Assembly: GCF_036507355.1 (NCBI RefSeq)
Contig: NZ_AP027877.1
DNA: 64,000 nt
From: Escherichia coli
GTDB lineage: Bacteria > Pseudomonadota > Gammaproteobacteria > Enterobacterales > Enterobacteriaceae
Strand: one strand, 5' to 3'
In this document: piece by piece, positions 1 through 30,705 of the stretch
How positions within the stretch are numbered: position 1 is the stretch's first letter
How the letters are laid out: the number at the start of each line of letters is the position of its first letter
Made by a program: the position numbers and the translations under genes
Notes under the pieces: model-generated
What the model was told of the DNA's origin: nothing
The model's database searches: none
Seen by the model: only the letters and a program-made list of their open reading frames with translations

Positions 1-152
1 GCGTGGACATCCCACTGGGCATGATTAGTCAGTATCTTCCCAAACAATTTGAACGCATTCAGTCCGGGGAATTATCAGCAATACCGCATCAGCTGATTAT
101 GGATAAAATTTATGATGTTTTGCGCGCCTATCGCTACGGCTGTGCGGAATAA
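1..152 (+). CDS. gatZ: GatZ (tagatose-bisphosphate aldolase non-catalytic subunit), C-terminal end; 5' partial at window edge
   Basis: Frame-3 translation ...[42 protein letters not shown] ends at TAA 150-152, directly upstream of gatA; position fits gat operon order. Confidence 0.8.
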
Positions 153-161
153 GGACGGTAT

Positions 162-614
162 ATGACTAACCTGTTTGTTCGTAGCGGAATTTCTTTTGTC
201 GATCGTAGCGAAGTTTTAACCCATATCGGTAATGAGATGCTCGCCAAAGGTGTGGTTCATGATACCTGGCCACAGGCATTAATTGCCAGAGAAGCAGAAT
301 TCCCTACCGGGATAATGCTTGAGCAGCACGCCATTGCAATACCGCATTGTGAGGCGATTCATGCTAAGTCGTCAGCCATTTATCTGTTAAGGCCAACAAA
401 TAAAGTTCATTTTCAGCAAGCGGATGATGATAATGACGTGGCGGTATCGTTGGTTATTGCGTTGATTGTGGAAAATCCGCAGCAGCAATTGAAACTTTTA
501 CGCTGTTTATTTGGCAAGTTACAACAGCCCGATATCGTCGAGACACTAATCACTCTTCCTGAAACCCAGTTAAAGGAATACTTCACAAAGTATGTTTTAG
601 ATTCAGACGAATAA
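162..614 (+). CDS. gatA: PTS galactitol-specific EIIA component
   Basis: 150-aa ORF with RBS aaggacgg upstream; sequence and length match GatA; followed by gatB/gatC. Confidence 0.9.
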   Translation: MTNLFVRSGISFVDRSEVLTHIGNEMLAKGVVHDTWPQALIAREAEFPTGIMLEQHAIAIPHCEAIHAKSSAIYLLRPTNKVHFQQADDDNDVAVSLVIALIVENPQQQLKLLRCLFGKLQQPDIVETLITLPETQLKEYFTKYVLDSDE

Positions 615-644
615 ATCCCTCTGTAACAATAAAAAGGACTATTT

Positions 645-929
645 ATGAAACGCAAGATTATTGTCGCTTGCGGAGGCGCGGTTGCGACCTCTACGATGGC
701 GGCGGAAGAAATTAAAGAGTTGTGTCAGAGTCATAATATTCCTGTTGAATTAATCCAGTGTCGGGTTAATGAAATAGAAACCTATATGGATGGTGTGCAT
801 TTGATATGTACCACTGCCAGGGTGGATCGTAGTTTTGGCGATATTCCGTTAGTTCACGGCATGCCTTTTGTTTCTGGTGTCGGTATCGAAGCATTACAAA
901 ATAAAATTCTGACTATCTTACAGGGGTGA
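645..929 (+). CDS. gatB: PTS galactitol-specific EIIB component
   Basis: 94-aa [19 protein letters not shown]... with active-site Cys-containing motif; operon context. Confidence 0.9.
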
Positions 930-932
930 CCT

Positions 933-2288
933 ATGTTTTCAGAAGTCATGCGTTATATTCTCGACCTCGGCCCTACGGTGATGCTGCCGATTGTCATCAT
1001 AATTTTTTCTAAAATATTAGGCATGAAGGCAGGCGATTGCTTTAAAGCGGGTCTGCATATCGGGATTGGCTTTGTTGGCATTGGCCTTGTGATTGGCTTA
1101 ATGCTGGATTCCATTGGCCCGGTGGCGAAAGCGATGGCGGAAAATTTCGACCTGAATCTGCATGTGGTCGATGTCGGCTGGCCGGGCTCTTCACCAATGA
1201 CCTGGGCGTCGCAAATTGCGCTGGTGGCGATTCCGATTGCGATTCTGGTTAACGTGGCGATGTTACTGACCCGTATGACGCGGGTGGTAAATGTTGATAT
1301 CTGGAATATCTGGCATATGACCTTCACCGGCGCGTTGCTGCATCTGGCAACCGGTTCATGGATGATAGGGATGGCGGGTGTGGTAATTCACGCGGCGTTT
1401 GTTTATAAGCTCGGCGACTGGTTTGCCCGCGATACCCGAAATTTCTTTGAGCTGGAAGGCATTGCTATTCCGCACGGTACGTCGGCGTATATGGGGCCGA
1501 TTGCGGTGCTGGTCGATGCCATTATCGAGAAAATCCCAGGTGTTAACCGAATTAAATTTAGCGCCGACGATATTCAGCGCAAATTTGGTCCGTTTGGCGA
1601 GCCTGTCACCGTGGGTTTTGTGATGGGGCTGATTATCGGCATCCTCGCGGGTTACGATGTCAAAGGTGTATTGCAGCTGGCGGTAAAAACGGCGGCGGTG
1701 ATGCTGCTAATGCCACGGGTGATTAAACCCATCATGGATGGTTTAACGCCCATCGCTAAGCAGGCCCGTAGTCGTTTACAGGCGAAGTTCGGCGGTCAGG
1801 AGTTCCTGATTGGCCTGGATCCCGCATTACTGCTGGGGCATACGGCGGTGGTATCGGCAAGCCTGATTTTTATTCCGCTCACCATTTTAATTGCTGTTTG
1901 TGTTCCGGGTAATCAGGTACTGCCGTTTGGCGATCTTGCAACTATCGGCTTCTTCGTGGCGATGGCGGTCGCGGTGCATCGTGGAAATCTGTTCCGCACC
2001 TTAATCTCGGGTGTCATCATTATGAGCATCACCCTGTGGATCGCGACGCAAACTATTGGTTTGCACACCCAACTGGCGGCTAATGCTGGGGCGTTAAAAG
2101 CCGGGGGTATGGTGGCTTCAATGGATCAGGGCGGTTCTCCCATTACCTGGTTACTGATTCAGGTTTTCTCCCCGCAAAATATTCCCGGTTTCATTATTAT
2201 CGGCGCAATTTATCTTACCGGTATTTTCATGACCTGGCGTAGAGCGCGTGGCTTTATTAAACAAGAGAAAGTCGTTCTCGCAGAATAA
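933..2288 (+). CDS. gatC: PTS galactitol-specific EIIC permease
   Basis: 451-aa polytopic membrane protein ORF immediately after gatB. Confidence 0.9.
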   Translation: MFSEVMRYILDLGPTVMLPIVIIIFSKILGMKAGDCFKAGLHIGIGFVGIGLVIGLMLDSIGPVAKAMAENFDLNLHVVDVGWPGSSPMTWASQIALVAIPIAILVNVAMLLTRMTRVVNVDIWNIWHMTFTGALLHLATGSWMIGMAGVVIHAAFVYKLGDWFARDTRNFFELEGIAIPHGTSAYMGPIAVLVDAIIEKIPGVNRIKFSADDIQRKFGPFGEPVTVGFVMGLIIGILAGYDVKGVLQLAVKTAAVMLLMPRVIKPIMDGLTPIAKQARSRLQAKFGGQEFLIGLDPALLLGHTAVVSASLIFIPLTILIAVCVPGNQVLPFGDLATIGFFVAMAVAVHRGNLFRTLISGVIIMSITLWIATQTIGLHTQLAANAGALKAGGMVASMDQGGSPITWLLIQVFSPQNIPGFIIIGAIYLTGIFMTWRRARGFIKQEKVVLAE

Positions 2289-2335
2289 TTTTTACCTGAG
2301 GGGGAGGTTATCCCCCTTAACAATCAGGAGTTTTT

Positions 2336-3376
2336 ATGAAATCAGTGGTGAATGATACTGATGGTATCGTGCGCGTTGCAGAAAGCGTCATTCCTGAAAT
2401 TAAACATCAGGATGAGGTGCGGGTAAAAATTGCCAGCTCGGGCTTATGTGGTTCCGATTTACCCAGGATATTTAAAAATGGTGCACATTATTATCCAATA
2501 ACGTTAGGCCATGAATTTAGCGGCTATATTGATGCGGTAGGATCCGGTGTTGATGATTTACACCCTGGCGATGCGGTTGCCTGTGTGCCGTTATTACCCT
2601 GTTTTACTTGTCCAGAGTGTTTGAAAGGGTTTTATTCCCAGTGCGCAAAATATGATTTTATTGGCTCACGGCGTGATGGAGGATTTGCCGAATATATTGT
2701 CGTTAAGCGAAAAAATGTCTTTGCTCTACCCACGGATATGCCTATTGAGGATGGGGCTTTTATTGAGCCGATTACCGTTGGCCTGCATGCTTTTCATTTA
2801 GCGCAAGGTTGTGAGAATAAAAACGTTATTATTATTGGTGCCGGAACCATTGGCCTGCTGGCTATTCAGTGCGCTGTCGCGCTGGGAGCAAAGAGTGTGA
2901 CGGCGATCGACATTAGCTCAGAAAAACTGTCACTGGCAAAATCTTTCGGTGCGATGCAAACATTTAACAGTAGCGAAATGAGCGCGCCGCAAATGCAGGG
3001 GGTTTTACGCGAGCTGCGCTTTAATCAGCTTATCCTCGAGACGGCTGGCGTACCGCAAACTGTCGAACTGGCGGTAGAGATTGCCGGTCCTCATGCCCAA
3101 CTGGCGCTGGTGGGCACGTTGCATCAGGATCTGCATTTAACATCGGCAACGTTTGGCAAAATATTGCGTAAAGAGTTGACGGTTATCGGCAGTTGGATGA
3201 ACTACTCCAGCCCTTGGCCAGGGCAGGAGTGGGAAACGGCGAGCCGGTTGCTGACAGAACGTAAGTTAAGCCTGGAGCCATTAATCGCTCACCGTGGAAG
3301 CTTTGAATGCTTCGCCCAGGCGGTGCGTGACATCGCTCGTAATGCTATGCCGGGCAAAGTGTTGCTCATTCCCTGA
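2336..3376 (+). CDS. gatD: galactitol-1-phosphate 5-dehydrogenase (Zn-dependent medium-chain dehydrogenase)
   Basis: 346-aa ORF with GHEFSG zinc-ADH motif and GAGTIGL Rossmann motif. Confidence 0.9.
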   Translation: MKSVVNDTDGIVRVAESVIPEIKHQDEVRVKIASSGLCGSDLPRIFKNGAHYYPITLGHEFSGYIDAVGSGVDDLHPGDAVACVPLLPCFTCPECLKGFYSQCAKYDFIGSRRDGGFAEYIVVKRKNVFALPTDMPIEDGAFIEPITVGLHAFHLAQGCENKNVIIIGAGTIGLLAIQCAVALGAKSVTAIDISSEKLSLAKSFGAMQTFNSSEMSAPQMQGVLRELRFNQLILETAGVPQTVELAVEIAGPHAQLALVGTLHQDLHLTSATFGKILRKELTVIGSWMNYSSPWPGQEWETASRLLTERKLSLEPLIAHRGSFECFAQAVRDIARNAMPGKVLLIP

Positions 3377-3475
3377 AACCGCGGGCCAGCGTGATGCTGG
3401 CCCGGTATTGTGCAAAACAGATCATTCACCAATGGTCCCCCTTCGTTTACACTAGCCACAATTGAATATGGGTAA

Positions 3476-4255
3476 ATGACGATGAATTCATTCGAGCGAA
3501 GGAATAAGATCATCCAATTAGTGAATGAACAGGGAACCGTGCTTGTTCAGGATCTGGCGGGAGTATTTGCTGCCTCGGAAGCGACAATCCGTGCCGATTT
3601 GCGCTTTCTCGAACAAAAAGGCGTGGTTACGCGCTTTCATGGCGGTGCGGCGAAAATAATGTCCGGTAATAGTGAAACCGAGACCCAGGAAGTCGGGTTT
3701 AAAGAGCGATTTCAGCTCGCCAGCGCGCCAAAAAACAGAATAGCGCAGGCGGCAGTCAAAATGATCCACGAAGGGATGACCGTTATTCTCGACAGCGGAA
3801 GTACGACAATGCTTATCGCCGAAGGATTAATGACCGCCAAAAATATCACGGTGATTACCAACAGTCTCCCGGCAGCGTTTGCCCTTTCCGAAAATAAAGA
3901 CATTACTCTGGTCGTCTGTGGTGGCACGGTCCGCCATAAAACGCGCTCGATGCATGGTTCCATTGCCGAGCGTTCATTGCAGGATATTAATGCCGATTTA
4001 ATGTTTGTCGGTGCTGATGGTATTGATGCGGTTAATGGTATTACGACCTTTAATGAAGGTTATTCGATTAGCGGGGCGATGGTCACCGCCGCAAATAAAG
4101 TGATTGCCGTTCTCGATTCATCGAAATTTAATCGTCGCGGTTTTAATCAGGTACTGCCAATCGAAAAAATTGACATTATTATTACCGATGATGCCGTGTC
4201 AGATGTGGATAAACTGGCATTGCAGAAGACACGGGTAAAATTAATTACGGTGTAG
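3476..4255 (+). CDS. gatR: DeoR-family transcriptional repressor of the gat operon; uninterrupted here
   Basis: 259-aa continuous ORF with N-terminal HTH and C-terminal sugar-binding DeoR domain; alternative ATG at 3482. Confidence 0.85.
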   Translation: MTMNSFERRNKIIQLVNEQGTVLVQDLAGVFAASEATIRADLRFLEQKGVVTRFHGGAAKIMSGNSETETQEVGFKERFQLASAPKNRIAQAAVKMIHEGMTVILDSGSTTMLIAEGLMTAKNITVITNSLPAAFALSENKDITLVVCGGTVRHKTRSMHGSIAERSLQDINADLMFVGADGIDAVNGITTFNEGYSISGAMVTAANKVIAVLDSSKFNRRGFNQVLPIEKIDIIITDDAVSDVDKLALQKTRVKLITV

Positions 4256-4305
4256 TATTGTTCTGTATGCCGGATAAGGTGTTTACACCGCATCCGGCAT
4301 TACGG
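4256..4305. repeat. REP (repetitive extragenic palindrome) element
   Basis: gccggataagg...gcatccggca palindromic REP-type sequence in gatR-yegS convergent intergenic region. Confidence 0.6.
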
Positions 4306-4336
4306 ATTCTCCCTGGTTCAAGAGAGAATAGTTTGA

Positions 4337-5236
4337 TTAACGCAATAATGGACAATCTGGTGGTAATCGACAACGCAACGCCGCCGGAAGTATTTCAATA
4401 TGGAAGTTTTGCCCACTCAACGGTTCGCCATCAAGATTAAAAGTGATTTCGTGTGGGGCTTGTATATCAAACCACGACGAAGCGCCTTCGATAATATTCG
4501 GGTTATCTTCGTCAGATTTTAAGGTTGATACGAGAGCCGGAAGAATTTCATCGCCGGTAAAAATGCGCAGTTGCAGCAAGCCATCGTTAATTAACGCGTT
4601 CGGGCACAATTGTTGACCGCCACCGGCCTGACGCCCGTTACCAATACCAATGACCAGGGCGTCACCTTGCCAGTGAAAGTTTTCACCGCGGATTTCACAA
4701 CGGTCCGGTTGCAGAGTATCCATGCGCATTAAGCCATGAATGATGTAAGAGACGCCACCCAGCGCGGCTTTTAATTTTTCCGGCGTTTCTGTGGTAATAC
4801 GCGTCCCAAATCCGCCTGTCGCCATATTAATAAAACAGGTTTGTTTGTTGACCTGCGCCATATCTATCGCAATGGCGTTACCGGCAATTGCCAGTTTCAG
4901 CGCCTTATCCAGTGCCTCAGGAATCCCTACACTGGTGGCAAAATCATTGGCGGTTCCTAATGGCAAAATTCCCAGCGCGGGTATGTCATCCCCCTCACAC
5001 TGAATCAACGCCGTAGAAACTTCATTAATGGTGCCATCGCCACCACCGGCAATCACCGTTGCGACGCCCAACTTCCGGGCCTCCTCTACATATCGTGCGG
5101 CATCGCCTTTCTCCCAGGTGACCCGCACATGGATCGTCATTCCTTCCTCACGCAACAGCATAATTGCTTCGCGCAATGGTAAATTGTCAGTACTTTTGCC
5201 ATTAAGAATCAGTAAGCTGGCGGGAAATTCTGCCAT
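4337..5236 (-). CDS. yegS: lipid kinase YegS (DAGK-family)
   Basis: 299-aa [19 protein letters not shown]... with GGDGT motif typical of diacylglycerol-kinase fold. Confidence 0.9.
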
Positions 5237-5626
5237 GATCGTATGTGCCTTTATGATTGGTCTGTAGATAGTGTAGAGCAGAAAAGAAAAGGTGGAGTCA
5301 GAACAGGATGAAAGTCGGAGGATAAATAGTCAGTTCAAGTATGGAGGATTCAGTGGTTACCACCAGGAGCTTGCAATGGGGACAGCGAATACTAACGGCA
5401 GCCACCGATAAATTTCAAAAAAGAGCATATACCTAATATTCAACTAAACAGTGGCATCTTCAATATAATATATTAAAGCCTCCATGGAGTTACCCGGAAG
5501 GGCCTCCATGTCCGTAATTCCTACTTATGTAGGAAATGTTGTACAGAACATTTATTATAATCCTATTCAATTATAATAATCATGCCATTATTATATTTAA
5601 ACACTAGAGAGTGTCGTTGGTATTTA

Positions 5627-5959
5627 ATGGGGGAAGGTGAGGTGAACAAGATAGCTGCTATATCATTAATTAGTGTTTTTCTTATGTCTGGTTGTGCTGT
5701 GCATAATGATGAGACAAGTATCGGTAAATTTGGTCTTGCATATAAAAGTAATATTCAGCGTAAACTCGATAATCAATACTACACCGAAGCCGAAGCTTCT
5801 TTAGCCAGGGGCAGAATTTCTGGTGCAGAAAATATAGTAAAAAATGATGCAGCCCATTTCTGTGTTACTCAGGGCAAAAAAATGCAGATAGTTGACCTGA
5901 AGACAGAAGGTGCAGGATTACATGGCGTCGCTCGTCTGACATTCAAATGTGGAGAGTGA
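5627..5959 (+). CDS. yegR: YegR, small putative lipoprotein of unknown function
   Basis: ORF with signal peptide and lipobox (LMSGC); start chosen at internal ATG (MGEGEV), upstream ORF extension unsupported. Confidence 0.6.
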   Translation: MGEGEVNKIAAISLISVFLMSGCAVHNDETSIGKFGLAYKSNIQRKLDNQYYTEAEASLARGRISGAENIVKNDAAHFCVTQGKKMQIVDLKTEGAGLHGVARLTFKCGE

Positions 5960-6117
5960 GAATATTTTTTGGTAAGCGCCAAACATGCGCGTTCTGGTTG
6001 TGCTTAGCCGGAACCTGTGCGAGCACGATGCCGTTACGTGAAAGGCATCGTGCTATGAAGGGAGATTCTATCGATGTGGTCAATGGAAGACGGTGACCAG
6101 GGATAGGGCTTATGCAT

Positions 6118-6204
6118 AAAAAATAAGCCCGTGTAAGGGAGATTACACAGGCTAAGGAGGTGGTTCCTGGTACAGCTAGCATTTTATGGGTTATGTTTTT
6201 CAGC
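6118..6204 (-). ncRNA. cyaR: CyaR (RyeE) Hfq-dependent small RNA
   Basis: Reverse complement of 6118-6204 reads GCUGAAAAACAUAACCCAUAAAAUGCUAGC...CACGGGCUUAUUUUUU, matching the CyaR sequence as I recall it, with terminal hairpin and U-tail. Confidence 0.85.
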
Positions 6205-6288
6205 GAAACGGATGATAACCTTAATAAATGCAGCTGTATGTGATCGGTTTCTAAGAATTTTCCATCCGGGAAAAATAATCGAAATTAA

Positions 6289-7650
6289 TCACTTACCGTG
6301 TGGGTTACGCGTGGTTTCCCCGGAGAAATTACGCATCAGCAGCGCGTAATTTAGCTCAAGATCCTGCGGCACCGGGAGCCACACAGTATAACCATCGCCT
6401 GGTGCTACCGGCATAGCTTCGCCTTTGGCGTTTTCCATGTGCTCAAGGGTAAAGTTAATGTTGCCTTGCGGCGTCATCAGCTCAAGGCTGTCGCCAACGG
6501 AGAATTTATTTTTCACCGCTACCGCCGCGAGGTCCCCCTTGCGCTCACCGGTAAACTCACCAACAAACTGCTGGCGGTCAGAAACTGAATAACCGTATTC
6601 GTAGTTCTGATAATCGTCGTGAGTATGACGACGCAGAAATCCTTCGGTGTAACCACGATGCGCCAGACCTTCCAGAGTTTCCAGCAGGCTGGTATCGAAC
6701 GGTTTTCCCGCAGCGGCGTCATCGATAGCTTTGCGGTAAACCTGTGCGGTGCGTGCGCAATAGTAGAAAGATTTAGTACGGCCTTCGATTTTCAGCGAAT
6801 GCACGCCCATTTTGGTCAGGCGTTCTACATGGGCGATGGCGCGCAGATCTTTCGAGTTCATGATGTAAGTGCCGTGCTCATCTTCAAACGCGGTCATATA
6901 CTCGCCCGGACGCTGGGCTTCTTCGATCATAAACACTTTGTCGGTTGGCGCGCCAATACCAAGCGTAGGCTCAACGTTTTGCACCGGAATCGGCTCGTAC
7001 TTGTGTACGATGTTGCCGACGTCATCTTCTTTACCTTCCTGTACGTTGTACTCCCAGCGGCAGGCATTGGTGCAGGTTCCCTGGTTCGGGTCGCGTTTGT
7101 TAATGTAGCCCGAGAGCAGGCAGCGACCGGAGTAGGCCATGCACAGTGCGCCGTGAACGAAGATCTCGATCTCCATATCCGGCACCTGATTGCGGATCTC
7201 TTCAATCTCTTCCAGCGACAGCTCGCGAGAGAGGATCACGCGGGTCAGGCCCATTTGCTGCCAGAATTTCACCGTCGCCCAGTTTACGGCGTTAGCCTGC
7301 ACCGAGAGGTGGATCGGCATTTCAGGGAAGTGCTCACGCACCAGCATAATCAGCCCTGGATCGGACATAATCAGCGCATCCGGCCCCATTTCCACCACCG
7401 GTTTCAGGTCACGGATAAAGGTTTTCAGCTTGGCGTTGTGCGGGGCAATGTTGACCACGACATAAAACTTTTTCCCCAGCGCGTGGGCTTCATTGATGCC
7501 GAGCTGAAGATTTTCGTGGTTGAATTCGTTGTTGCGCACACGCAGGGAGTAACGCGGCTGGCCCGCATAAACAGCATCTGCGCCATAAGCGAAAGCGTAA
7601 CGCATATTTTTCAGCGTTCCCGCCGGGGAAAGGAGTTCCGGTTTAAACAT
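6289..7650 (-). CDS. yegQ: U32-family peptidase YegQ
   Basis: 453-aa ORF MFKPELLSPAGTLKNMRYAFAYGADAVYAGQPRYSLR... characteristic of peptidase U32 family. Confidence 0.9.
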   Translation of the reverse strand: MFKPELLSPAGTLKNMRYAFAYGADAVYAGQPRYSLRVRNNEFNHENLQLGINEAHALGKKFYVVVNIAPHNAKLKTFIRDLKPVVEMGPDALIMSDPGLIMLVREHFPEMPIHLSVQANAVNWATVKFWQQMGLTRVILSRELSLEEIEEIRNQVPDMEIEIFVHGALCMAYSGRCLLSGYINKRDPNQGTCTNACRWEYNVQEGKEDDVGNIVHKYEPIPVQNVEPTLGIGAPTDKVFMIEEAQRPGEYMTAFEDEHGTYIMNSKDLRAIAHVERLTKMGVHSLKIEGRTKSFYYCARTAQVYRKAIDDAAAGKPFDTSLLETLEGLAHRGYTEGFLRRHTHDDYQNYEYGYSVSDRQQFVGEFTGERKGDLAAVAVKNKFSVGDSLELMTPQGNINFTLEHMENAKGEAMPVAPGDGYTVWLPVPQDLELNYALLMRNFSGETTRNPHGK

Positions 7651-7752
7651 AATTCTCTCGTTCTGATGACAGGTCAGATCCGCTTCACCTGATGAAGCGG
7701 TTAGGGGAGTGCCCCCACTTTAAGGGCGGGCATTGTAGCGCAATCGGCGGGT

Positions 7753-8049
7753 TTAGCTCCAGTGTAAATGTCTGGTGGCGTCCTGGTTTTGGTTAAGGAT
7801 ACGAATGACGATAATTTCCCCTGGTGATTGCAGGAAATAAATTACGTGGCGTTCAAAAGGAAGAACAAAAATACCTTCGCCTAATTCAGGTCTGGGCGTA
7901 CCTATATTATTGTTACTCAGAATCTGGAGAACGTCTGAAAGATGTTCCACATATCTGTCGGCTTGTGGTTCGCCGAAATGGTGATAACTGTAATACCAGA
8001 TGCCTTCTAAATCCTCATTGGCTTTTGGCATGAGTTTAATAATACGCAC
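7753..8049 (-). CDS. ParE/RelE-superfamily toxin
   Basis: 98-aa ORF immediately downstream of, and 1 nt from, an RHH antitoxin ORF; ParE-like sequence pattern (..IFY...I.IIRIL...). Confidence 0.75.
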   Translation of the reverse strand: MRIIKLMPKANEDLEGIWYYSYHHFGEPQADRYVEHLSDVLQILSNNNIGTPRPELGEGIFVLPFERHVIYFLQSPGEIIVIRILNQNQDATRHLHWS

Positions 8050-8050
8050 A

Positions 8051-8302
8051 TTATTTCCTTATCCCTGCTTTCACCTTCCGTAAAAACGCGTCCTTTTCCC
8101 ACGGCTGAGCTTCACCACTACTCAACCCTTCTGCAAGCATGTCACGTAACGCTTGCAGGCGAGACTCTGCTTGCTTTTCTCGAAGTAAGCGCAGTGACTC
8201 ACGGATCACTTCGCTTTGGGTGCGATAGTCGCCGGATTCAATTAAGGACTCGATAAATTCACGCAACTCATCGCCGAGATCAACCGTCATCGTTCTGGCC
8301 AT
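8051..8302 (-). CDS. ParD-like (RHH/COG3609-type) antitoxin
   Basis: 83-aa ORF MARTMTVDLGDELREFIESLIESGDYRTQSEVIRESLRLLRE..., typical ParD antitoxin; precedes toxin ORF. Confidence 0.75.
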   Translation of the reverse strand: MARTMTVDLGDELREFIESLIESGDYRTQSEVIRESLRLLREKQAESRLQALRDMLAEGLSSGEAQPWEKDAFLRKVKAGIRK

Positions 8303-8315
8303 GTTTATGCTCTCC

Positions 8316-8334
8316 TGTAAGTAAAAATCTTACA
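8316..8334 (-). promoter_or_regulatory. Inverted repeat TGTAAG-n7-CTTACA in promoter region of the ParDE-like operon (candidate autoregulatory operator)
   Basis: Perfect 6-bp inverted repeat about 15 bp upstream of antitoxin start. Confidence 0.4.
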
Positions 8335-8499
8335 TCAGTGTATGTCATAAACCGGATAGCGTCACGAAAGTATTAGAAGATATTTTGGCAGATGAACATG
8401 TTCAGGAGGATAAGCATGGAGATGTTAAACAAAGAAAGCACAATGAGTATTCATCAGTGTCCACTATTTTAATGGCGCAGGTAAATAAATAAGCGTTAT

Positions 8500-8537
8500 T
8501 TGGAAATAAAGCCGGACGCCAACAACCCACGCCCGGC
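8500..8537 (-). terminator. Rho-independent terminator downstream of yegP
   Basis: GC-rich hairpin GCCGGGCG...CGTCCGGC followed by TTTATTTCC on minus strand just after yegP stop. Confidence 0.5.
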
Positions 8538-8544
8538 ATCGTAA

Positions 8545-8877
8545 TTACGTATTGTCTTTCACCGTCTGGCTTGTGCCATTGGCTTTAACGGAGGCAATTC
8601 CGGTTTCACGAGATTGCGCGGTGGCATACATCTGGCTGGAGCCGATAATTTGATGATTGGCGGCTTTCAGATTGAAATAGAATTTGCCGTTGCTTGCCGT
8701 TTTTTTCTCATAGCGTTCTTCTTGCGGGCTGTTGCTACGCACCGACGCGATGCCCTTTTCCGCAGAGGCTTTTGAGGTATACAGCTCGCTGGTGAGGATA
8801 GTCTCACCATTGCCCGCTTTTAGCACAAACCGGAACTGATTATCACTGCTCTTACTGAGTTCAAACCAACCAGCCAT
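8545..8877 (-). CDS. yegP: YegP (UPF0339/DUF1508 tandem-domain protein)
   Basis: ORF with internal tandem duplication (…KASAEKGIASVRSN… / …AQSRETGIASVKAN…); start at ATG MAGWFEL with upstream RBS. Confidence 0.85.
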   Translation of the reverse strand: MAGWFELSKSSDNQFRFVLKAGNGETILTSELYTSKASAEKGIASVRSNSPQEERYEKKTASNGKFYFNLKAANHQIIGSSQMYATAQSRETGIASVKANGTSQTVKDNT

Positions 8878-9067
8878 AATGACTCCTTGATTGAAATTGC
8901 TTATCGAAAACAGCATCTAAAGGTGCTGTTTACCGATTAAAGTATGAGCGATTTTCTGATGCCTGCCAGGGCGGAGAGATAATGTCAGTTTGCTGACCAT
9001 GCGTGGGATAATGTTGCCGGATCTGGTCTGAACGCCATCTCCGGCTAACAAAATAATGTCGCTAAAA

Positions 9068-9790
9068 CTAAACGATGCGGCAGGCGTCGGCTTCCCAGCG
9101 GTAACCGACGCCGTAAACGGCGCGGATAAATGACTGTTCGGCGTCGAGAGATTCCAGCTTGCGGCGCAGGTTTTTAATGTGGCTGTCGATGGTGCGGTCG
9201 GTTACTACGCGGTAGTCGTCATAAAGATGATTGAGCAATTGCTCGCGGGAGAACACTTTTCCTGGTTCGTGAGAGAGCGTTTTCAGCAGACGAAATTCCG
9301 CAGGCGTCAGGTCAAGCATTTTACCGCGCCATGAAGCCTGAAAACGACCTTCGTCGATAATCAACGGGCTTTCAGCATCCTGTTGCTGCAACTCGCGCTG
9401 CGGTTTGCAACGGCGCAAAATGGTTTTGACGCGCGCTACCACTTCCCGTGGGCTGTACGGCTTACAGATATAATCATCTGCGCCAATCTCCAGTCCGAGC
9501 AGGCGGTCGATCTCTTCGATTTTTGCCGTGACCATCACGATAGGAATGTCAGAAAAACGACGAATTTCCCGGCACAGCGTCAAGCCATCGGTGCCAGGGA
9601 GCATCAGATCCAACAGGATCAGATCCGGTGGTGTCTGGCGCACATACGGCAGTACCTGATCGCCGTGGCTGATAAGCGTCGGCGCATAGCTCGCAGCACG
9701 CAGATAATCAATGAGCAACTGCCCCAGCTTCGGTTCATCTTCCACGATCAAAATACGCGGTGTGTTTTCGTCGATTGGTAACTCGGTCAT
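9068..9790 (-). CDS. baeR: OmpR-family response regulator BaeR
   Basis: 240-aa ORF with receiver domain (LIVEDEPKL...D) and winged-helix C-terminus; overlaps baeS stop. Confidence 0.9.
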
Positions 9791-11190
9791 ACTTCTCTCT
9801 GTAAATCCCGTTCCAGCGGTAACTCTACTGTAATGCTTACCCCGCCAAAAGGCGAATGGGCGGCAATAATGCGGCCATTATGTGCTTCAACAATGTTCAG
9901 GCAAATCGCCAGCCCCAGCCCGGAACCGCCGCTGGCGCGGTTGCGGGAACCTTCGGTGCGATAAAAACGTTCAAACAATTTTTGTAGCTGATCGTCACTG
10001 ACACCTGGCGCACTGTCGGCAAAGGTCAGGCGCACCGTTTTGTCGTGCTGCTCGGCAGAGATTTTCAGGCTGCCGCCGCTGTCAGTGTAGCGCAGGCTGT
10101 TTTCCAGTAAGTTATTGAATAACTGCATTAAACGGTCGCGATCGCCAAATACGGTGATACTGTCTGGCAGGGAAAATTGCAGTTTCAGGCCACGGCTGGC
10201 AAATCGTTCGCGAAATGCGCCGCCCGCCACTTCCAGCAGTGGGATCAAATCTACCGGTGCTTTTTGATAGGCGAGAGCGCCTTCATCAGACATCGACAAC
10301 TGATGGAGATCGTCAACCAGTTTGGTCAGTGTACCGACCTCCGCCTGTAAAGACGCCACCGTCTCCGGCGTGAATTTACGCACGCCATCCTGAATGGCTT
10401 CCAGTTCACCGCGCAGCACTGCTAATGGCGTACGCAGTTCGTGAGAAATATCGGCCATAAAATCGCGCCGCATTTGCTGGTTTTTCTCCAGCGTGCTGGC
10501 GAGCTGGTTGAAGTCTTGCGCCAGTTTGCCCAGTTCATCTTCACTGGTGGGCGTTACGCGGGTAGTGAAATCGCCCGCCGCCAGTTTGTGCGTGCCATCG
10601 ACAAGTCGTTTTACCGGTGCCAGTAAACCGCGCGCTAGCAGAAAAGTGGCGAGTGCCGCGAGTAACGTTGCCAGGGCGACAATCAGCCAGCTGGTTTGCC
10701 GTTGTTGTTTATCGAAATTGATATCAGTATTGCGGGTCAGCCGCTCAACGGGGGAGGCAATCACCGCGCCCACTTCCGCACCGTTGACCAGAATGGGTCG
10801 CCGTGTACCGTCAGGTGGAATCGGCGCTCGCGGACCAACCAGCACCTTGTTGTTTTGATCAACCACCCAGAACTGAGTACGCCAGCCGTGTGGTGGCATA
10901 CCCGGGCCGGGTTTATCTTCCGAATTATCGTGTTCAAATGAACGCAGGATCTGAAAGACAAAGCGATCATTGTTGCGCAGGAAGCGCCAGTTGCCATGCT
11001 GCGCATACTGCTCGCCAAGCGCATCACTTAACAGTTGTAATCGCTGTTCATTACCATGCTTGATGTAATCAATAAAGCCACGCTCAAAACTGATACGCAC
11101 CGCCCAGTGCATACTGATCAGCAAGACAATGCAGGTGGCGAAAATCGCCAGAAACAGTTTGCCGGTAATACCAGGTCGCCAGAACTTCAT
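9787..11190 (-). CDS. baeS: sensor histidine kinase BaeS
   Basis: 467-aa ORF with TM segments, H-box ([11 protein letters not shown]) and HATPase motifs; upstream of baeR. Confidence 0.9.
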
Positions 11191-12602
11191 TGCGCGCTCC
11201 TTTTTCGCCGCGAAATAGCTACATTTTGATGCGTATCGTTCGGCACTCTGGCAAAGATGAACGCCGGAAGGGCGATGATAAACGCCATGCTAAGCCAGGT
11301 GTACATAAAGACGGTTTGTGTGGTGCTGCTGTCGACGCTGACATGCTGCGAACCAAAAAGTCCCAGCAACAGCCCGGCGATGGTGACGCCGATACTCATC
11401 GACAATTGCATAATCATCGACAGCAGACTGTTGCCGCTGCTCGCCAGATTGTCCGGGAGATCTTTCAGCGTCAGGGTGTTCATGGAGGAGAAACGGGTCG
11501 AGTTGACCATCCCTTGTAAAAACAGGACGAACGGCAAAACGTAGTACCAGCCCAACAGAGCGGTAGTCATAAACAACAGGGTGACCAGCGACAGACCCAG
11601 CGTGGTCGCTACCAGTACCCGACGATAACCAAAGCGATTCACCACCTGTACAACAATCCGCTTCATCCCCATGCTGCCAAGCACCATCGGGATCATCATC
11701 AGTCCGGCATGAAACGGTGAGAAGCCAAGGCCAATTTGCAGGAAAACCGGTGTCATAAAGGGCAACATGCCACTGCCAATACGTCCGGCAAAGCTCCCCG
11801 CCAGGCCCAGCGAAAAGGTACGAGTACGGAACAGTTTCAGACTGAACAGGGCACGGTTGTTATTTCTGGCGTGCAGCAGATAAAGCACCAGTGCCACCAC
11901 GCCAACTGCGACCAGGCCAGCAATCGCCAGCGGCGATAAACCTGTACCTTTACTGCCGTCCAGCGCCAGGGTTAATACCGCCATGCCAACCGCCAGCAAC
12001 AGAAAGCCGGAGAGATCAAAGCGCCGCGTCTGCATGGTATAGTTCGGCATTAACATCAATGTGGCGATCGCACCAATAATTCCCACCGGAATGTTGATCA
12101 AAAAGATCCAGTGCCACGACGCGTACTCCACCAGCAGACCGCCAAGCGCCGGACCGAGCAGCGGACCGACCTGACCGGGTAACGTGACAAAGGTCATCGC
12201 CGCCATATATTGCTCGCGCGGTACGATTTTCATCACCGTCAACCTGCCGACCGGCACCATCATCGCACCGCCCACGCCCTGTAACGCGCGTGCCAGCAAC
12301 AGTTCGTTCAGCGTGCCGGAAAGCGCGCAAAACAGTGAACCGAGAGTAAACAGCATGATGGCGGTAAAGAAAATATTGCGCACGCCGACTTTGTCCGCCA
12401 GCCAGCCGCTGGCGGGCAGCATCACCGCCACGGTCAGTACATAAGAGACAATAACCATGTGCATATGCAACGGACTTTCCCCGAGGCTTTGCGCCATTGA
12501 GGGAAGGGCGGTGTTTACGATGGTGGTGTCCAGCGACTGCATAAAGAAGCCGAAAGCCACAATCCACAATTGCCAGCGGGTGCTGTCGGGAAGATCTGTC
12601 AT
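11187..12602 (-). CDS. mdtD: MFS transporter MdtD
   Basis: 471-aa 14-TM MFS-type ORF overlapping mdtC stop and baeS start. Confidence 0.9.
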
Positions 12603-15600
12603 TTACTCGGTTACCGTTTGTTTAGGTTTACGCGAAAAACGCAGCCGCAGACGGTCGAAAAAGAGATACACCACCGGCGTGGTATACAGCGTCAGGAGCT
12701 GGCTCATTACCAGACCGCCGACAATGGTGATCCCCAATGGTTGGCGCAACTCCGAGCCGTCACCGCCCGACAACACCAGCGGCAGCGCGCCAAACAGCGC
12801 CGCCAGGGTAGTCATCATAATCGGGCGAAAACGCAGCAGACAGGCCTGGAAAATAGCTTCCTGCGGCGTCAGGTTACCGTGCCGTTGGGCTTCGAGCGCA
12901 AAATCGACCATCATAATGGCGTTTTTCTTCACGATGCCGATTAATAGCATGATCCCTATCAGGGCGATTAGGCTGAACGGGGCATTGAACAGCTCCAGCG
13001 CCAGCAGCGCTCCAACGCCCGCCGAGGGCAGGGTGGAGAGAATCGTCAGCGGATGTACGTAACTCTCGTAAAGGATACCCAGCACGATATACACCGTAGC
13101 GATGGCGGCGATAATCAGGATCACCTGCGAGTTCATCGTCTCCTGGAACACCTGCGCCGTGCCGGCAAAACTACCGCGCACCGTCGAAGGCACACCAAGC
13201 TGGGTCATTGCGCGATCGATCGCCGCACTGGCGTCCGAGAGCGATTTTCCGGTCGGCAGGTTGAACGAGATGGTCGAGGCCGCCGATAATCCCTGATGAT
13301 TCACCGACAGCGGGGCATTCGCCGGTTGCCATTTAGCGAAATACGACAGCGGGATCGCTTTGCCTTCGTTATTGATAACGAACATTTTTTCCAGCGCGCT
13401 GATGTCCTGGGTATAGCGCGGATCCACTTCCATCACCACTTTATACTGGTTCATCGGCTGGTAAATGGTCGAGATTTGCCGCTGACCGAAGGCGTTATTT
13501 AACAGACTGTTGGCGGCCTGTACGTCGATTCCCAGCCGTGCCATGGTGTCGCGGTCGTAAACCAGATTCATCTCCGCGCCGTTATCTTGCTGATCGGAGT
13601 TCACGTCCGCCAGTTCCGGCAACGTCGCCAGTTTTTTGCGGATTTTCGGCTCCCATTCGCGCAGTGCCGCCAGGTCGTCGGATAACAACGTGTACTGGTA
13701 GCTGGCGTTCGACTGACGCCCACCAACGCGAATATCCTGTACCGCCATCAGGAACAGATTCGCCCCCGGTTCTTTCGCCAGCTTCACGCGCAGACGGTCG
13801 ATAATTTGCTGCGCCGTTTCGCTGCGTTCGTCGCGTGGCTTGAGGGTGATAAACATCATCCCGCTGTTCACTCGCGAACCGCCGGTAAATCCGGTGACAT
13901 TATCCACTGCCGGATCGTCACGGATAATTTTCATGAAATCCTGCAACTTACCGCGCATCGCCTGAAACGAAATACTCTGATCCGCCTGAATCCCGCCCAT
14001 CAACACGCCAGTGTCCTGCTCCGGGAAGAAGGTTTTCGGGATCGAGATATATAGCCAGATATTCAGCGCAATGGTGCCAAGCAGCACCACGCCCACCAGA
14101 CGGGTATGATTGAGCACCCATTTCAGTGACTTGCCGTAGCCTTGTTGCAGGGCTACCAACATGCGACCAAAACCACGTAGTCGCTTTTGCTCGCGCGGCT
14201 TGCTGGCTTTCAGCATCCAGCCACACATCATCGGCGTTAGCGTCAGGGAAACCAGCAACGAAATACCAATGGCGACAGAAAGCGTTACGGCAAACTCGCG
14301 TAACAGACGCCCCGGCAATCCGCCCATCAACAGCAGCGGCAGGAACACCGCCACCAGTGACAGACTCATCGACAGCACCGTAAAACCGACTTCGCGAGTA
14401 CCTTGTAGCGCGGCCTGTAGTGGTTTCATCCCCGCTTCCAGATGACGGGCAATGTTTTCCAGCACCACGATGGCGTCATCCACCACAAAGCCTGTGGCGA
14501 TGGTGAGCGCCATTAACGACAGGTTATTGAGACTGAATCCGCACAGGTACATCGCCGCAAACGTACCAATCAGCGAAACCGGCACCGCAACGGCGGGAAT
14601 AATAGTGGCGCGACCCGAGCGCAGGAATAAAAACACCACCAGAATCACCAGCGCCACCGAGATAATCAGCGTTTGCTCGACTTCTTCCAGCGAGGCGCGA
14701 ATGGTGGGGGAGCGATCCTGAGCAATTTGCAGATCAATCGCCGCCGGAATGGTTTCCTGCAACTCCGGTAATTTTGCCCGGATGCTGTCAACCGTCTGGA
14801 TAATATTGGCTTCCGGCAGCTTGCGGATCATCAGCAAAATAGCCGGTTTGGCGTTGGTCATCCCGGCGTTGCGCACATCCTGCACTGAGTCGGTCACCGT
14901 CGCCACATCGCCCAGACGAACCGCGCCGCCGTTGTTGTAGTGAATAATCAGCGGCTGATATTCAGCGGCGGTTTTCAGTTCATCGTTGGTCTGGATCTGC
15001 CAGCGGTGAGTGCCATCTTCCAGCGCCCCCTGCGGTTTACGCACGTTGGCATTGCTGATGGCAGTGCGTACGTCGTCCAGCGACACGCCCTGATTAAACA
15101 GCGCCTGCGGGTTCAGCCCGACGCGCACGGCGGGCAGCGAGCTGCCGCCGACATCGACATCACCGACGCCGTCGATTTGCGAAATCGTCGGAGCCAGCTG
15201 CGTCGAGGCGAAATCGTACAATTCACCCTGCGAATAAGTATCGGAGGTTAGCGTCAGGATCATAATTGGCGCATCCGACGGGTTCGCTTTGCGATAAGTC
15301 GGGCGGCTGGGCATCCCACTGGGCAGCAGACTTTGTGCGGCGTTGATCGCCGCCTGCACATCACGCGCCGCACCGTTGATATCCCGGTCAAAATCAAACT
15401 GCAAAATAATACGCGTGCTGCCGAGCGAACTGCTGGAGGTCATTTCACTGACCCCGGCAATGCGCCCAAGTGAACGCTCCAGCGGCGTGGCAACGGAAGA
15501 CGCCATTGTCTCCGGCGACGCACCGGGCAGCGAGGCGCTGACCATAATCACCGGAAAATCGACCTGCGGCAGCGGGGCGACCGGCAGCATACGGAAACCC

Positions 15601-15680
15601 AGTATGCCGCACAGGGTAATGGCGACCGACAGTAAAATCGTCGCCACCGGGCGGTAAATGAAGAGGGCAAAAAACTTCAC
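12603..15680 (-). CDS. mdtC: RND multidrug efflux transporter subunit MdtC
   Basis: 1025-aa RND permease ORF. Confidence 0.9.
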
Positions 15681-18600
15681 TTACGCCTCCTCTTCATGGC
15701 GAGCAAAGCGACTTTTGGTCCACAATGCAAGGCGGTCGAACAGCAGATAAATCACTGGCGTGGTAAACAGCGTCAGTACCTGGCTGACAACCAGACCACC
15801 GACCATACCAATGCCTAACGGACGACGCAGTTCCGCGCCGACCCCGGTACTCAACATCAGCGGCAGCGCGCCAAGCAGAGCCGCCAGGGTGGTCATCAGG
15901 ATCGGACGAAAACGCAACAGACAAGCCTGGTAGATTGCATCGCGCGGCGACATGCCTTGCTCGCGCTCAGCAGCCAGCGCGAAGTCGATCATCATGATGG
16001 CGTTCTTCTTCACGATACCGATCAGCAAAATAATGCCGATAATCGCAATCACATCCAGTTCGCTACCGGCAATCATTAACGCCAGCAGGGCGCCAACACC
16101 TGCCGTGGGTAGCGTCGAGAGAATGGTGATCGGGTGAATAAAGCTCTCGTACAGAATGCCGAGCACGATATACATCGCCACCACCGCCGCGACAATCAGC
16201 CAGACAGTGCTGCCCAGCGCCGACTGGAAGGCGAGGGTGCTGCCCTGGAACTGCGTGGTGATATCCACCGGCAGATTCAGCGTCTTTTCGGTGTCCATAA
16301 TCGCCTGCACCGCATCGCCCAGCGAATAGTTATCTGGCACGTTAAAAGAGATGGTCGTTACCGGGAACTGATCCAGATGGTTGATGGAAAGCGGCGCAAA
16401 ACGCTGTTCAACTTTGGCAATTGAGCTTAACGGCACCACGCCGCCGTCGCTGCTGGTCAGGCGAATGGTATCCAGCGCCGCGAGGCCTGGGGTATTTTCG
16501 GTATTGTGCTCCAGCACTACGCGATACTGGTTAGCCTGAGTATAAATAGTGGAAATCAGTCGCTGACCAAACGCGTTGTACAGGGCGTTATCGACATCCG
16601 CCATGCTGATCCCCAGACGGCTGGCGCTGTCGCGATCAACATTGACATACGCCACCAGCCCTTTGTCCTGCCAGTCGCTGGAGACATCAGAAATCTGTGG
16701 CAGCTGCTGGAGTTTTTCCATCAACTGTGGCACCCAGGTACTGAGCGCATCTAGTGACGTGGCCTGCAAGGTAAACTGGTACTGGGTGCGGCTGACCTGA
16801 GTATCGATGGTCAGGTCCTGCGTTGGTTGCAGGAAGAGATCGACGCCCGGCACTTTATCCACCGCCGTTTGCAGACGGGCGATGACTTTTTGCACTCGAT
16901 CATCACGTTCATCCAACGGTTTGAGGTTGATCTGCAAACGCGCACTGTTCAGCGACGGGTTAGTGCCATCAACGCCAACAAATGAGGTCAGATTTTGCAC
17001 TGCCGGATCCTGCAAAATCACGTCCGCGACCTGGCGTTGCCGCTGGGCCATATTGGCAAAGGAGCTGGATTGCGGTGCCTGCAAAGTGCCCTGAATAATG
17101 CCGTTATCCTGTACCGGGAAGAAACCTTTCGGAATGAACATCCACAATAGAACGCTAAGCAGCAGCGTGCTGAGCGCCACGCTTAAGGTCAGCCACGGAT
17201 GATTCAGCACTTTCGCAAGTCCCTGACCATAGGCGGCGATTATCCTGTCGAACATTTTTTCCGAGGCACGGGAGAAGCGGTTCTGTTTACGCAACGACTC
17301 CTGGCTGAGCATCCGTGCGCACATCATCGGTGTCAGGGTTAGCGACACCACGGCTGAGATTAAAATCGCTACCGCCAGGGTAATAGCAAATTCGCGGAAC
17401 AGTCGCCCGACGATATCGCCCATAAACAGCAGTGGGATCAACACCGCAATCAGCGAGAAGGTCAGCGAGATAATGGTAAAGCCGATTTCACCTGCGCCTT
17501 TGAGCGCCGCCGCCAACGGTTTTTCGCCTTTTTCGATATAGCGGGAAATATTTTCGATCACCACGATGGCGTCATCGACCACGAACCCGGTGGCGATAGT
17601 TAACGCCATCAGCGTCAGGTTATTGATTGAAAAATCGAGAAACACCATAACCGCAAAAGTGCCGATTAACGACAGCGGCACGGCAACACCGGGAATGATG
17701 GTCGCCGGAATATTGCGCAAAAACAGGTAGATAATCATGACTACCAGCGCGATAGCCATCATCAGCTCAAACTGGGTATCGTCGACGGATGCGCGGATAT
17801 TGGTGGTGCGGTCAGAAAGTACCGTCACCTTCACCGATTTCGGCAGACTCTCGGTAAGCTGCGGCAGCATCTGCCGAATACTGTCGGCGGTAGAGATAAT
17901 GTTAGCACCAGGCTGGCGCTGAACATTCATCACAATAGCCTGTTCTTTATTCGCCCACGCCCCAAGCCAGCCGTTTTCGGCCCCTTGTTCAACGGTTGCG
18001 ACATCACCAAGACGAATCGGCGCGCCGTTCTGGTAGGCGATGATTAGCTGGCGATACTCTTCGGCGGATTGCATCTGGTCGTTAGCGGAAAGCGTGACCG
18101 CGCGGGAAGGGCCGTCGAGGCTACCTTTGGCTGAGTTAACGTTAGCACCGGTAATGGCGGTGCGCACGGTTTCGCTGGTCAGGCCGAGGGCGGCAATCGC
18201 CTGGGCGTTAAGTTTGACGCGAACAGCCGGACGCTGGCCGCCGGAAAGCGTCACCAGGCCGACGCCGGAAATCTGCGAGATTTTCTGCGCGACGCGGGTT
18301 TCCACCATATCTTCCACTTGCGTCATCGGCATGGCTGTTGAGGTGACGGCGAGCGTCATGATCGGCGGATCTGCCGGGTTCACTTTGCTGTAAACCGGCG
18401 GGTTAGGCAGATCGCTCGGCAACAAGTTGGTCGCAGCGTTAATCGCGGCCTGTACTTCCTGCTCGGCGACATCCAGCGGTAATGTTAGCTGGAACTGCAA
18501 AGTGATAACTGACGCACCGCCGGAACTTTGCGACGACATCTGTTTCAGACCAGACATCTGCCCGAACTGGCGTTCGAGCGGCGCGGTAACGGCAGAGGTC

Positions 18601-18803
18601 ATGACATCCGGGCTGGCACCTGGGTAGAGCGTGACCACCTGAATGGTCGGATAGTCCACTTCCGGCAGCGCCGAAACGGGCAGGGCGCGATAACCGATAA
18701 TCCCGGCGAGTAAGATCGCCACCATCAGCAGCGTGGTGGCCACAGGACGCATAATAAACAGGCGCGACGGGCCGCCTGTGCTGCTCGGAGGTAACACCTG
18801 CAT
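15681..18803 (-). CDS. mdtB: RND multidrug efflux transporter subunit MdtB
   Basis: 1040-aa RND permease ORF directly upstream of mdtC. Confidence 0.9.
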
Positions 18804-20050
18804 CAGGAGCGTGCTCCTTTTTTCGCGTATTCGCGGCTGGTGGCTTTCTCTTCCGGAGTGGTGGCGCTCTGGGCTTCCACCACTTCCACTTTCGCCCCTT
18901 CGGTCAGGCGATCAATGCCGTCTGTCACCACGCGATCGCCCGCAGAAATACCTGCGCGGATCACCACTTTCTGACTGTCCTGAATGCCCGGCGTCACCAG
19001 ATGTTTGCTGACCTTGTTTTCGCTATTCAGCACCCAGACAAAATGGCCTTCATTGCCCATTTGCAGGGCGGCGGTGGGGATCACTACGGCGTTTTGTTCG
19101 GTGTCGACTAACATGCGCGCGTTAACAAACTGATTGGGAAACAGCGCATCATCCTGATTATTAAAGCGTGCTTTCACTTTAATCGTACCGGTAGTGGCAT
19201 CGATTTGGTTATCGAGACTTAACAGCGTGCCTTCACTTAATTTCTTCGAGTTGGTGCGATCCCAGGCTTCTACCACCAGCGGTTTCCCGGCTTTTTGCGC
19301 CTGCATAACGGTAGTGATATCGCTTTCCGGCAGGGTAAAGACTAAATCGATAGGATGCGTCTGGGTGATCACCACAATTCCGGTGGTATCACCACTGGAG
19401 ATTTGGTTACCGACATCAACCTGCTTGAGACCAACGCGACCATCGACTGGTGCGGTGATGCGGCTCCAGTCGAGTTGCAGCTGTGCGCTGGCGACGCTTG
19501 CTTCATCAGCCTTAATGGTGCCTTCGGTTTCACTGACCAGCGCTTGTTGGGCATCCAGTTCCTGACGAGATACGAGATTGGTTTTTACCAGTTGTTGATA
19601 ACGCGCCAGGTCACGGCGGGCGTTGGCAAGCGTGGCTTTATCTTTTGCCAGTTGGCCCTGGGCTTGTGCTAATGCAACTTTGAACTGGCTGGGGTCAATT
19701 TCTGCCAGTAAATCGCCTGCTTTGACCTGCTGGCCTTCCTGGAAATGTAACGCCATCAGTTGACCGTCCACGCGGCTACGCACCGTAACAGTATTAGCAG
19801 CGGTAATAGTGCCAAGCCCGGTGAGGTAACGCGGAACTGCCTGTTCTACGGCGGTCGCCGCCTGAACCGGGGCTAATGGGCCGGAACGCATACCACGGCG
19901 ACCACCCGCTGGCGATTGCTGCGCTTGTTTCGTCGCCCCTGGGGCTGCACTCTGGGAGTCATTGCGGCCTTGCCAGAACCAGAATGCGGCGATGGCGGCG
20001 ATAACCACCACGATTACGATTACCCAACGGGATTTATAACTGCCTTTCAT
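18803..20050 (-). CDS. mdtA: RND efflux membrane fusion protein MdtA
   Basis: Membrane-fusion-protein ORF; start set at ATG ([12 protein letters not shown]...) with upstream RBS, giving 415 aa; the longer six-frame ORF extension is unsupported. Confidence 0.85.
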
Positions 20051-20289: not shown

Positions 20290-20440
20290 GCCCCTCCCGA
20301 GGAAGGGGCCATAAATAAGGAAAGGGTCATGATGAAGATACTCATCATCGTGGCGCTCTTAGTGATTAGCTACCCAGCATACTAAGACTACCAGGGCGGG
20401 GGAAACCCCGCTCTACCCTCACTCCTGAAAGTATGCCTTC
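20290..20440 (-). ncRNA. sib: Sib-family antisense sRNA (antitoxin) overlapping ibs copy 1; boundaries approximate
   Basis: By family knowledge Sib RNAs are about 140 nt and fully antisense to ibs; minus-strand hairpin GGCCCCTTCCTCGGGAGGGGC+TTTCCC at 20291-20320 is a candidate terminator. Confidence 0.45.
20329..20385 (+). CDS. ibs: Ibs-family type I toxin peptide (MMKILIIVALLVISYPAY)
   Basis: 18-aa hydrophobic peptide ORF with MMK start and RBS aagg, inside Sib/Ibs repeat unit. Confidence 0.8.
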   Translation: MMKILIIVALLVISYPAY

Positions 20441-20636
20441 ACGTTCAGAATGTCAATCCGCAGGCTTTGCAGTCTGCGATCCTGCCAGCAAATATTCTTT
20501 GCGAGACGTTACGCAATAATCACAGAGGAAACTATTTTGTTCACGCGTTAGCGATAGACTGAATTCAGGGCGAAAGGAGGTAAGCCGACGATTTCAGCGG
20601 GACGCTGAAACGGGAAAGCCCCTCCCGAGGAAGGGG

Positions 20637-20648: not shown

Positions 20649-20721
20649 TAAGTTGCACATTTAAAATCTCTTTAATTATCAATAAACTACAATGTATAGG
20701 TCATTATTAGTCAAAATAAAA

Positions 20722-21621
20722 TCATTTGTTGATTTCAATTTTGTCCCATTCTCTCCCTCGGCTATCCCTATACCGCGCCGCCATTGAATCTGATTTATGT
20801 CCGAGAAGACGTTGAGCAAACTTATCGCCAATCTGATTCCGGTATAGCCTCGCCGACAGGCTACGCAGTTCATGGAATGTTGGTGGGTCTCCATCAAATG
20901 AGAGTCCAGATGCATTTCTCGCCTTTGTAAAATACTTCGATACTGTTTTCGGGGAAAGCGGTTCGTGATGCGTTGAGGCGATTATAGTTTCACTGCCGCT
21001 GGCCTCCCTGCATTTCTGTAGTGTATCAGCCAATGAGATATTGAGCGCGTCAATCGTTAGCATCAGCGGAATGGCGAGCTTAGCCCCTGTTTTACCCTGT
21101 TCAATGTGAAGATGGTTGTCGTTTATGTCTGACCATTTCATTCTGCACAAATCGCCGACTCTCTGCCCTGTAACGACAGCCGAATCCATCGCCAGTCTTA
21201 GCCAGATTGGGAGAGGTTCGGCTGCATGGTAAATCGCGACATACTCATTAGCTGTCAGCCTTGAGCGCCTTACTTCTGACTTTGCTGTGCGGGTTGCTGT
21301 TACCGGATTCGTTTCCACATGCCCCTCGGCTATTGCCTCACGAAAAACGTCAACAAGGGTTGACCTGATTAATTTTGCGGAAGCCGCTTTACCTTCTGCT
21401 ACGTAGGTGTTTAGCATTGCTGCCACCTCTTTCGTTGATATGTCAGCGAGCGGTTTGTCCGGCAATTTTCTTCGGATTGCCCTGATTTTGCTGGCGTAGT
21501 CGAGTAGAGTTTTCGTCCTGATCCCCCTCTCGCTGAGGATTGTTTCATATCGGTCAAGCCACGCATGAAGAGTGATTACGTCAGCGCCTTTAATCCTGTC
21601 TATCAGTGAGGTAGCCTGAGT
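20722..21621 (-). pseudogene. int: Tyrosine recombinase (phage integrase), N-terminally truncated
   Basis: Catalytic-domain motifs present (…HELRSLSARLY…LLGHKSDSMAARYRD…); reading frame continues upstream of the annotated start to 21621 (…SLIDRIKGADVITLHAWLDRYETILSERGIRTKTLLDYASKIRAIRRKLPDKPL) and is cut by an IS3-family fragment. Confidence 0.75.
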
Positions 21622-22120: not shown

Positions 22121-22149
22121 CGGTAACAAGCCGATACATGCCACACGCA

Positions 22150-22756: not shown

Positions 22757-22771
22757 GGTAATGACTCCAAC

Positions 22772-30697: not shown

Positions 30698-30705
30698 AAA
30701 GGGTC

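Follow-up and report, generated by a model that had tools for sequence, protein, structure and literature searches.

Intact gatR without the K-12 IS3E insertion at the end of the galactitol gene cluster in an Escherichia coli sequence

The window analysed here, that is, the whole stretch of 64,000 nucleotides of Escherichia coli DNA, opens inside the galactitol (gat) gene cluster. Its first base falls within gatZ (corresponding to base 2625 of the sequence L002), and gatY, most of gatZ and the gat promoter/operator lie upstream of it. The next genes, all on the plus strand, are gatA (162-614), gatB (645-929) and gatC (933-2288), encoding the galactitol PTS components IIA, IIB and IIC, and gatD (2336-3376), encoding galactitol-1-phosphate 5-dehydrogenase. 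All four matched NCBIfam models over the full profile length and above cut-off, gatA, gatB and gatD as equivalogs and gatC through the subfamily model TIGR00827. Directly 3′ of gatD, at the end of the gat cluster, lies gatR, which is followed by the convergent lipid kinase gene yegS (4337-5236, minus strand; NCBIfam PRK13054, E=4.5e-148). This is the position of the GatR orthologue, and the order gatA-gatB-gatC-gatD-gatR-yegS is common to the window, E. coli TB06051, HS and K-12. Within the cluster, the gatC of the window is intact, a 451-aa ORF (933-2288) that matches EIIC-GAT over its full length, and gatC is a pseudogene in the MG1655 reference (L004, NC_000913.3, 7922-9279).

The spacer between gatD and gatR (3377..3481, plus strand) is 105 bp long, and its sequence does not differ between the window, K-12 and HS. 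Just 3′ of the gatD stop codon, at 3382-3404, we read by eye a hairpin with a 9-bp stem. A sigma-70-like consensus scan of positions 3300-4400 called neither a promoter nor a terminator in this spacer. The same scan returned three promoter-like matches within the gatR coding sequence, which were set aside as uninformative, being near shuffle expectation. On the other side of the gene, the convergent spacer between gatR and yegS holds a palindrome read by eye at 4268-4299, TGCCGGATAAGGTGTTTACACCGCATCCGGCA, which we take to be REP-like. Relatives carry similar elements between fbaB and gatY, and a 78-bp indel that contains REP sequence distinguishes some strains there.

In the ORF listing of the window, gatR is a single ATG-initiated frame on the plus strand (3476..4255, 259 aa). 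A first, sequence-only reading of this DNA had described this continuous frame, and had named a frameshift or premature stop upon re-inspection as the finding that would overturn it. Translation of the region proved to be uninterrupted: it runs through 259 codons with the sole stop at its end and zero internal stops or frameshifts. Chance is not an issue for this ORF, because random sequence would keep a frame open for 259 codons with a probability of only approximately (61/64)^259, or about 4e-6. The annotated start is slightly different. The ORF begins with ATG ACG ATG AAT TCA, and both PGAP (in TB06051) and the MG1655 reference annotation place the start at the second ATG, window position 3482. 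The coding sequence with this PGAP/EcoCyc start spans 3482..4255 on the plus strand and encodes a curated protein of 257 aa plus stop, two residues shorter than the product of the longest ORF from 3476. Both lengths, 257 and 259 aa, occur in public gene calls.

GatR belongs to the DeoR family and represses gatYZABCD, the operon of the galactitol PTS and of galactitol catabolism. The domain content of the window protein agrees with membership in the DeoR/GlpR family, comprising an N-terminal helix-turn-helix and a full-length C-terminal DeoRC sugar-phosphate sensor. The DNA-binding helix-turn-helix (HTH_DeoR, Pfam PF08220) is encoded at 3497..3655 on the plus strand, residues 8-60 of the 259-aa ORF, and matched profile positions 1-53 of 57 above the gathering score (E=1.3e-16). 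Meanwhile, the effector-binding sensor domain (DeoRC, Pfam PF00455) is encoded at 3728..4189 on the same strand, residues 85-238, and matched profile positions 5-159 of 160 with 174.2 bits (E=2.6e-51). The sensor domain also matched the DeoR C-terminal domain of PDB entry 7l6l (E=9.8e-12). The two full-length Pfam domains and the gene order gatABCD-gatR-yegS bear out the earlier identification of a DeoR-family repressor at the gatR locus.

NCBIfam holds no GatR-specific model, and the models that scored highest for the window ORF were those of AgaR (232.6 bits) and SrlR (226.1 bits). These scores could be read as evidence of an AgaR- or SrlR-like paralogue that controls something other than gat, and AgaR and SrlR (GutR) do share the two-domain architecture and size of the window GatR. 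Nevertheless, both scores fall under their curated cut-offs (260 and 350, respectively), and the window protein shares 256 of 257 residues with K-12 GatR and occupies the same place between gatD and yegS. AgaR and SrlR are sugar-alcohol and amino-sugar repressors, paralogues that lie elsewhere in E. coli and govern other operons. We rejected an AgaR or SrlR identity on the basis of the sub-cut-off scores and the gatR synteny; synteny and sequence identity effectively refute it, and we assign it a negligible probability. PGAP applies the generic name "DeoR/GlpR family DNA-binding transcription regulator" because a GatR-specific NCBIfam model is absent and the AgaR and SrlR matches stay below cut-off.

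For the gat genes and for the insertion sequence in K-12 gatR, the primary paper is reportedly that of Nobelmann and Lengeler in 1996. K-12 MG1655 carries the same gene as the window, with gatD upstream and yegS downstream, but in NC_000913.3 it is annotated as a two-piece pseudogene (b4498) around IS3E (2170171..2171428, 1258 bp). To map the insertion site, the window was compared by blastn with L001, a genome with the K-12-type gatR::IS3 junction. The match stops at window position 3780 and restarts at 3778, and the L001 junctions place the IS3 ends (TGATCC... / ...GATCA) between duplicated copies of GAC. In K-12, IS3E sits after the base equivalent to window position 3780 and splits the gene at approximately codons 99-100. 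The window displays the empty target site, GAC at 3778..3780 (plus strand), where K-12 has the 1258-bp element and a 3-bp duplication. The window is collinear across this site; therefore, the IS3E insertion is absent, and the K-12-type gatR::IS3E null allele is not what the window carries.

The claim of the sequence-only reading that an IS3 element splits gatR in MG1655 is thus correct, with the site at 3778-3780, and its further claim that this renders gat expression constitutive is stated in the literature (PMC5850726, PMC9189660). According to Sousa et al. 2017 (PMC5850726), the insertion sequence in MG1655 gatR inactivates the repressor and makes the gat operon constitutive. The gene is likewise described as inactivated by an insertion sequence in PMC9189660 (citing Nobelmann & Lengeler 1996) and in PMC5094792. 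One passage of PMC5850726 labels the K-12 element "IS1"; we discarded this label, as both the annotation and the junction analysis identify IS3E. In contrast to K-12 MG1655, with its IS3E, its duplicated GAC and its constitutive gat expression, the gatR of the window is free of the insertion.

For a comparison of the proteins, K-12 GatR was reconstructed by taking out IS3E and one GAC copy, yielding 257 aa. The window ORF aligned without gaps and over its whole length to both the reconstructed K-12 GatR and the GatR of E. coli HS. The alignment to K-12 gatR that the sequence-only reading had proposed as a check revealed a single amino-acid change, E241D, among 11 nucleotide differences. Ten of these 11 differences are synonymous, because only one residue differs. 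HS gatR is the same as the reconstructed K-12 gatR at the nucleotide level, so the window protein is identical to either at 256 of 257 residues (99.6%). Codon 241 in the 257-aa numbering (4202..4204, plus strand) is GAT, encoding Asp, where K-12 and HS have Glu. This replacement is conservative and falls beyond the C-terminal end of the Pfam DeoRC match. HS GatR (WP_001295426.1) resembles the window GatR in locus, 257-aa length and 105-bp upstream spacer, and differs from it by E241D and 11 nucleotides in total. Meanwhile, WP_001303580.1 of TB06051, annotated under the generic family name, is identical to the window protein, because the DNA of the two strains is 100% identical over window positions 3377-4336; the flanking 10 kb of TB06051 are only 99.05% identical, which marks TB06051 as a different strain. 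At least 1000 public contigs encode the exact protein in its 257-aa form, and at least 1000 in its 259-aa form.

The HS allele provides the experimental link. Sousa et al. 2017 replaced the K-12 pseudogene with an HS fragment carrying native gatR, using primers in yegS and gatD, and the resulting K-12 strain regulates gatYZABCD again (PMC5850726). In mice, the restored gatR was hit by de novo IS insertions, which rapidly produced constitutive mutants once more, and the gut readily selects gat-negative mutations (PMC5850726).

We surveyed 5426 complete E. coli genomes with the gatR region (window 3377-4336) as query. The region was matched in 5109 of them and unmatched in the remaining 317. An uninterrupted single match covering at least 80% of the region was found in 4756 of the 5426 genomes, a count of BLAST coverage to which small frameshift or nonsense alleles are invisible. 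An 80-bp K-12 gatR/IS3 junction had a full match in exactly 349 of the 5426 genomes, and the carriers among the matches listed (ER1709, RP437 and MG1655) are all K-12 laboratory strains. By subtraction, other large disruptions of gatR affect about 4 of the 5109 carriers, an example being PCP06238, with 17% coverage. IS-mediated gatR knock-outs of the kind that arise in mice (PMC5850726) appear to be rare among sequenced natural isolates, because only about 4 non-K-12 genomes are disrupted among these 5109. Judged from this survey, intact gatR is the ancestral and dominant state in E. coli and the norm of the species. The K-12 lesion, meanwhile, has the look of an accident confined to that lineage.

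The remainder of the window provided information on the relatedness of this DNA. In the same collection of 5426 complete E. coli genomes, which excludes Shigella, the best identity to window positions 1-20000 is 98.7% over 20 kb, and gatR itself has a 100% match. Six contigs that encode the same GatD share 98.1-99.1% identity with the window over their aligned parts, and for three of the six the alignment extends over just about 6 of the 13.4 kb that were compared. Either this part of the window belongs to a lineage unrepresented among the complete E. coli genomes (possibly Shigella), or it is a mosaic recombined region. With regard to the latter option, the region is near the colanic-acid and O-antigen loci. 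At the far end of the window, a JUMPstart element (47814-47852, plus strand, 57.3 bits) and an algC RNA motif (62331-62380, plus strand, 76.6 bits) suggest that the sequence enters a surface-polysaccharide cluster, either colanic acid or O-antigen.

Between mdtA and yegL, at the sib/ibs toxin-antitoxin locus, we observed an island of approximately 10 kb (20653-30685), with about 345 bp of target duplicated on both sides. Sib RNA copies flank the island at 20314-20456 and 30691-30833, and a third copy lies at 31020-31168. The island encodes a truncated phage integrase (20722-21465, minus strand), an Ead/Ea22 gene, two IS1 transposases (22772-23275 and 23549-24052), an IS3-family transposase (26016-26828), a GtrII-type glucosyltransferase (27580-29067), gtrB (29054-29983) and gtrA (29980-30342). 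This gene content looks like an IS-eroded remnant of a serotype-converting prophage with an O-antigen glucosylation cassette. None of the 5426 complete E. coli genomes covered the island at 80% or more, the best coverage being 42%.

Closer to gatR, the CyaR (RyeE) sRNA was identified through Rfam between yegR and trhP/yegQ (6121-6206, minus strand, 100.7 bits). The P2-type prophage site beside it (5960-6290) is empty in the window, whereas the P2-like remnant PR-X (ogrK, yegZ) adjoins cyaR in K-12 and a full P2-like prophage occupies the site in two relatives (L005 and L008). On the minus strand, an ORF of 98 aa at 7753-8049 and another of 83 aa at 8051-8302 correspond in position to a ParE toxin/ParD antitoxin pair called in the collinear relative L006. 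E. coli HS is without the segment of about 770 bp that spans 7742-8510, and K-12 has no ParE/ParD pair annotated between trhP and yegP. The ParD of TB06051 is annotated as frameshifted, whereas the 83-aa ORF of the window is open.

In the DeoR family, GatR included, the helix-turn-helix holds on to operators and the protein is released once the sensor domain binds the inducer, which for this pathway is galactitol or its 1-phosphate. The GatR of the window would, through its N-terminal domain, bind operators at the gatY promoter, and its C-terminal sensor domain would free the DNA when the inducer is present. The gat genes would thereby be inducible, the IS3E lesion that abolishes this control being absent from the window. 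In relatives, the proximal promoter region of gatY reads TTTTCATATTGTCG...ATTTCATTATATTTTGAAATCG, and the roughly 100 bp nearest to the gene are nearly invariant in six aligned strains, K-12 and HS included. The alignment of these six relatives revealed a TGTGA-type CRP-like half-site, as well as an inverted repeat, ATTTCA-N8-TGAAAT, with a TATATT hexamer overlapping it. It is speculation to see in the half-site or the repeat a CRP site or a GatR operator.

Collectively, these findings indicate that window positions 3482-4255 very probably encode a wild-type, full-length GatR, the repressor of an inducible gatYZABCD operon, in its ancestral and common state. We strongly infer that this GatR is a working repressor, because it is one conservative change away from the HS allele, follows the same spacer and occurs on at least 1000 contigs. 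The functional repressor that the sequence-only reading had proposed is therefore upheld as a strong expectation, a single conservative residue separating it from an HS allele that regulates gat in K-12. That the gat operon of this strain would be inducible, and not constitutive, is likewise well supported.

Two other outcomes have to be weighed against this. It is very unlikely that the ORF is intact and the protein nonetheless impaired, through E241D or through poor expression, leaving the operon constitutive. The protein is indeed one residue off the experimentally validated HS allele, and the consensus scan calls no promoter in the gatD-gatR spacer. Yet E241D is a conservative change outside the DeoRC match, on its C-terminal side, the spacer is the very one that HS and K-12 carry, and presence of the exact protein on so many public contigs would be unexpected for a defective allele. 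Somewhat less improbable, though still unlikely, is a functional GatR in a gat system that is not inducible or not functional, due to a defect beyond the window, affecting gatY, the 5′ portion of gatZ or the promoter/operator. The window starts within gatZ, with gatY and the promoter beyond it; selection in the gut readily yields gat-negative mutations (PMC5850726), and even the MG1655 reference has a gatC pseudogene. Against such a defect, gatA, gatB, gatC and gatD are full length in the window, gatY and gatZ are annotated or called where expected in all nine related loci examined, and the proximal promoter is nearly invariant in the six aligned strains. A wild-type GatR controlling an inducible operon remains our preferred reading.

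There is also a slim chance that the D241 allele, or the promoter region of this lineage, alters the strength of repression or the response to the inducer relative to the E241 allele of HS. If true, this would represent natural quantitative variation in gat regulation, which would be of some interest, since gat regulation is strongly selected in the mouse gut.

Based on these findings, the gatR of the window is an ordinary wild-type gene, already known. The contrast drawn in the sequence-only reading is with a laboratory-strain lesion, and an intact gatR at this locus is nothing unusual. These observations are of relevance only when gat expression data or gut-colonisation phenotypes of K-12 are extrapolated to this strain, and otherwise amount to annotation. 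This strain probably regulates its galactitol catabolism in the manner of wild E. coli, unlike the constitutive K-12.
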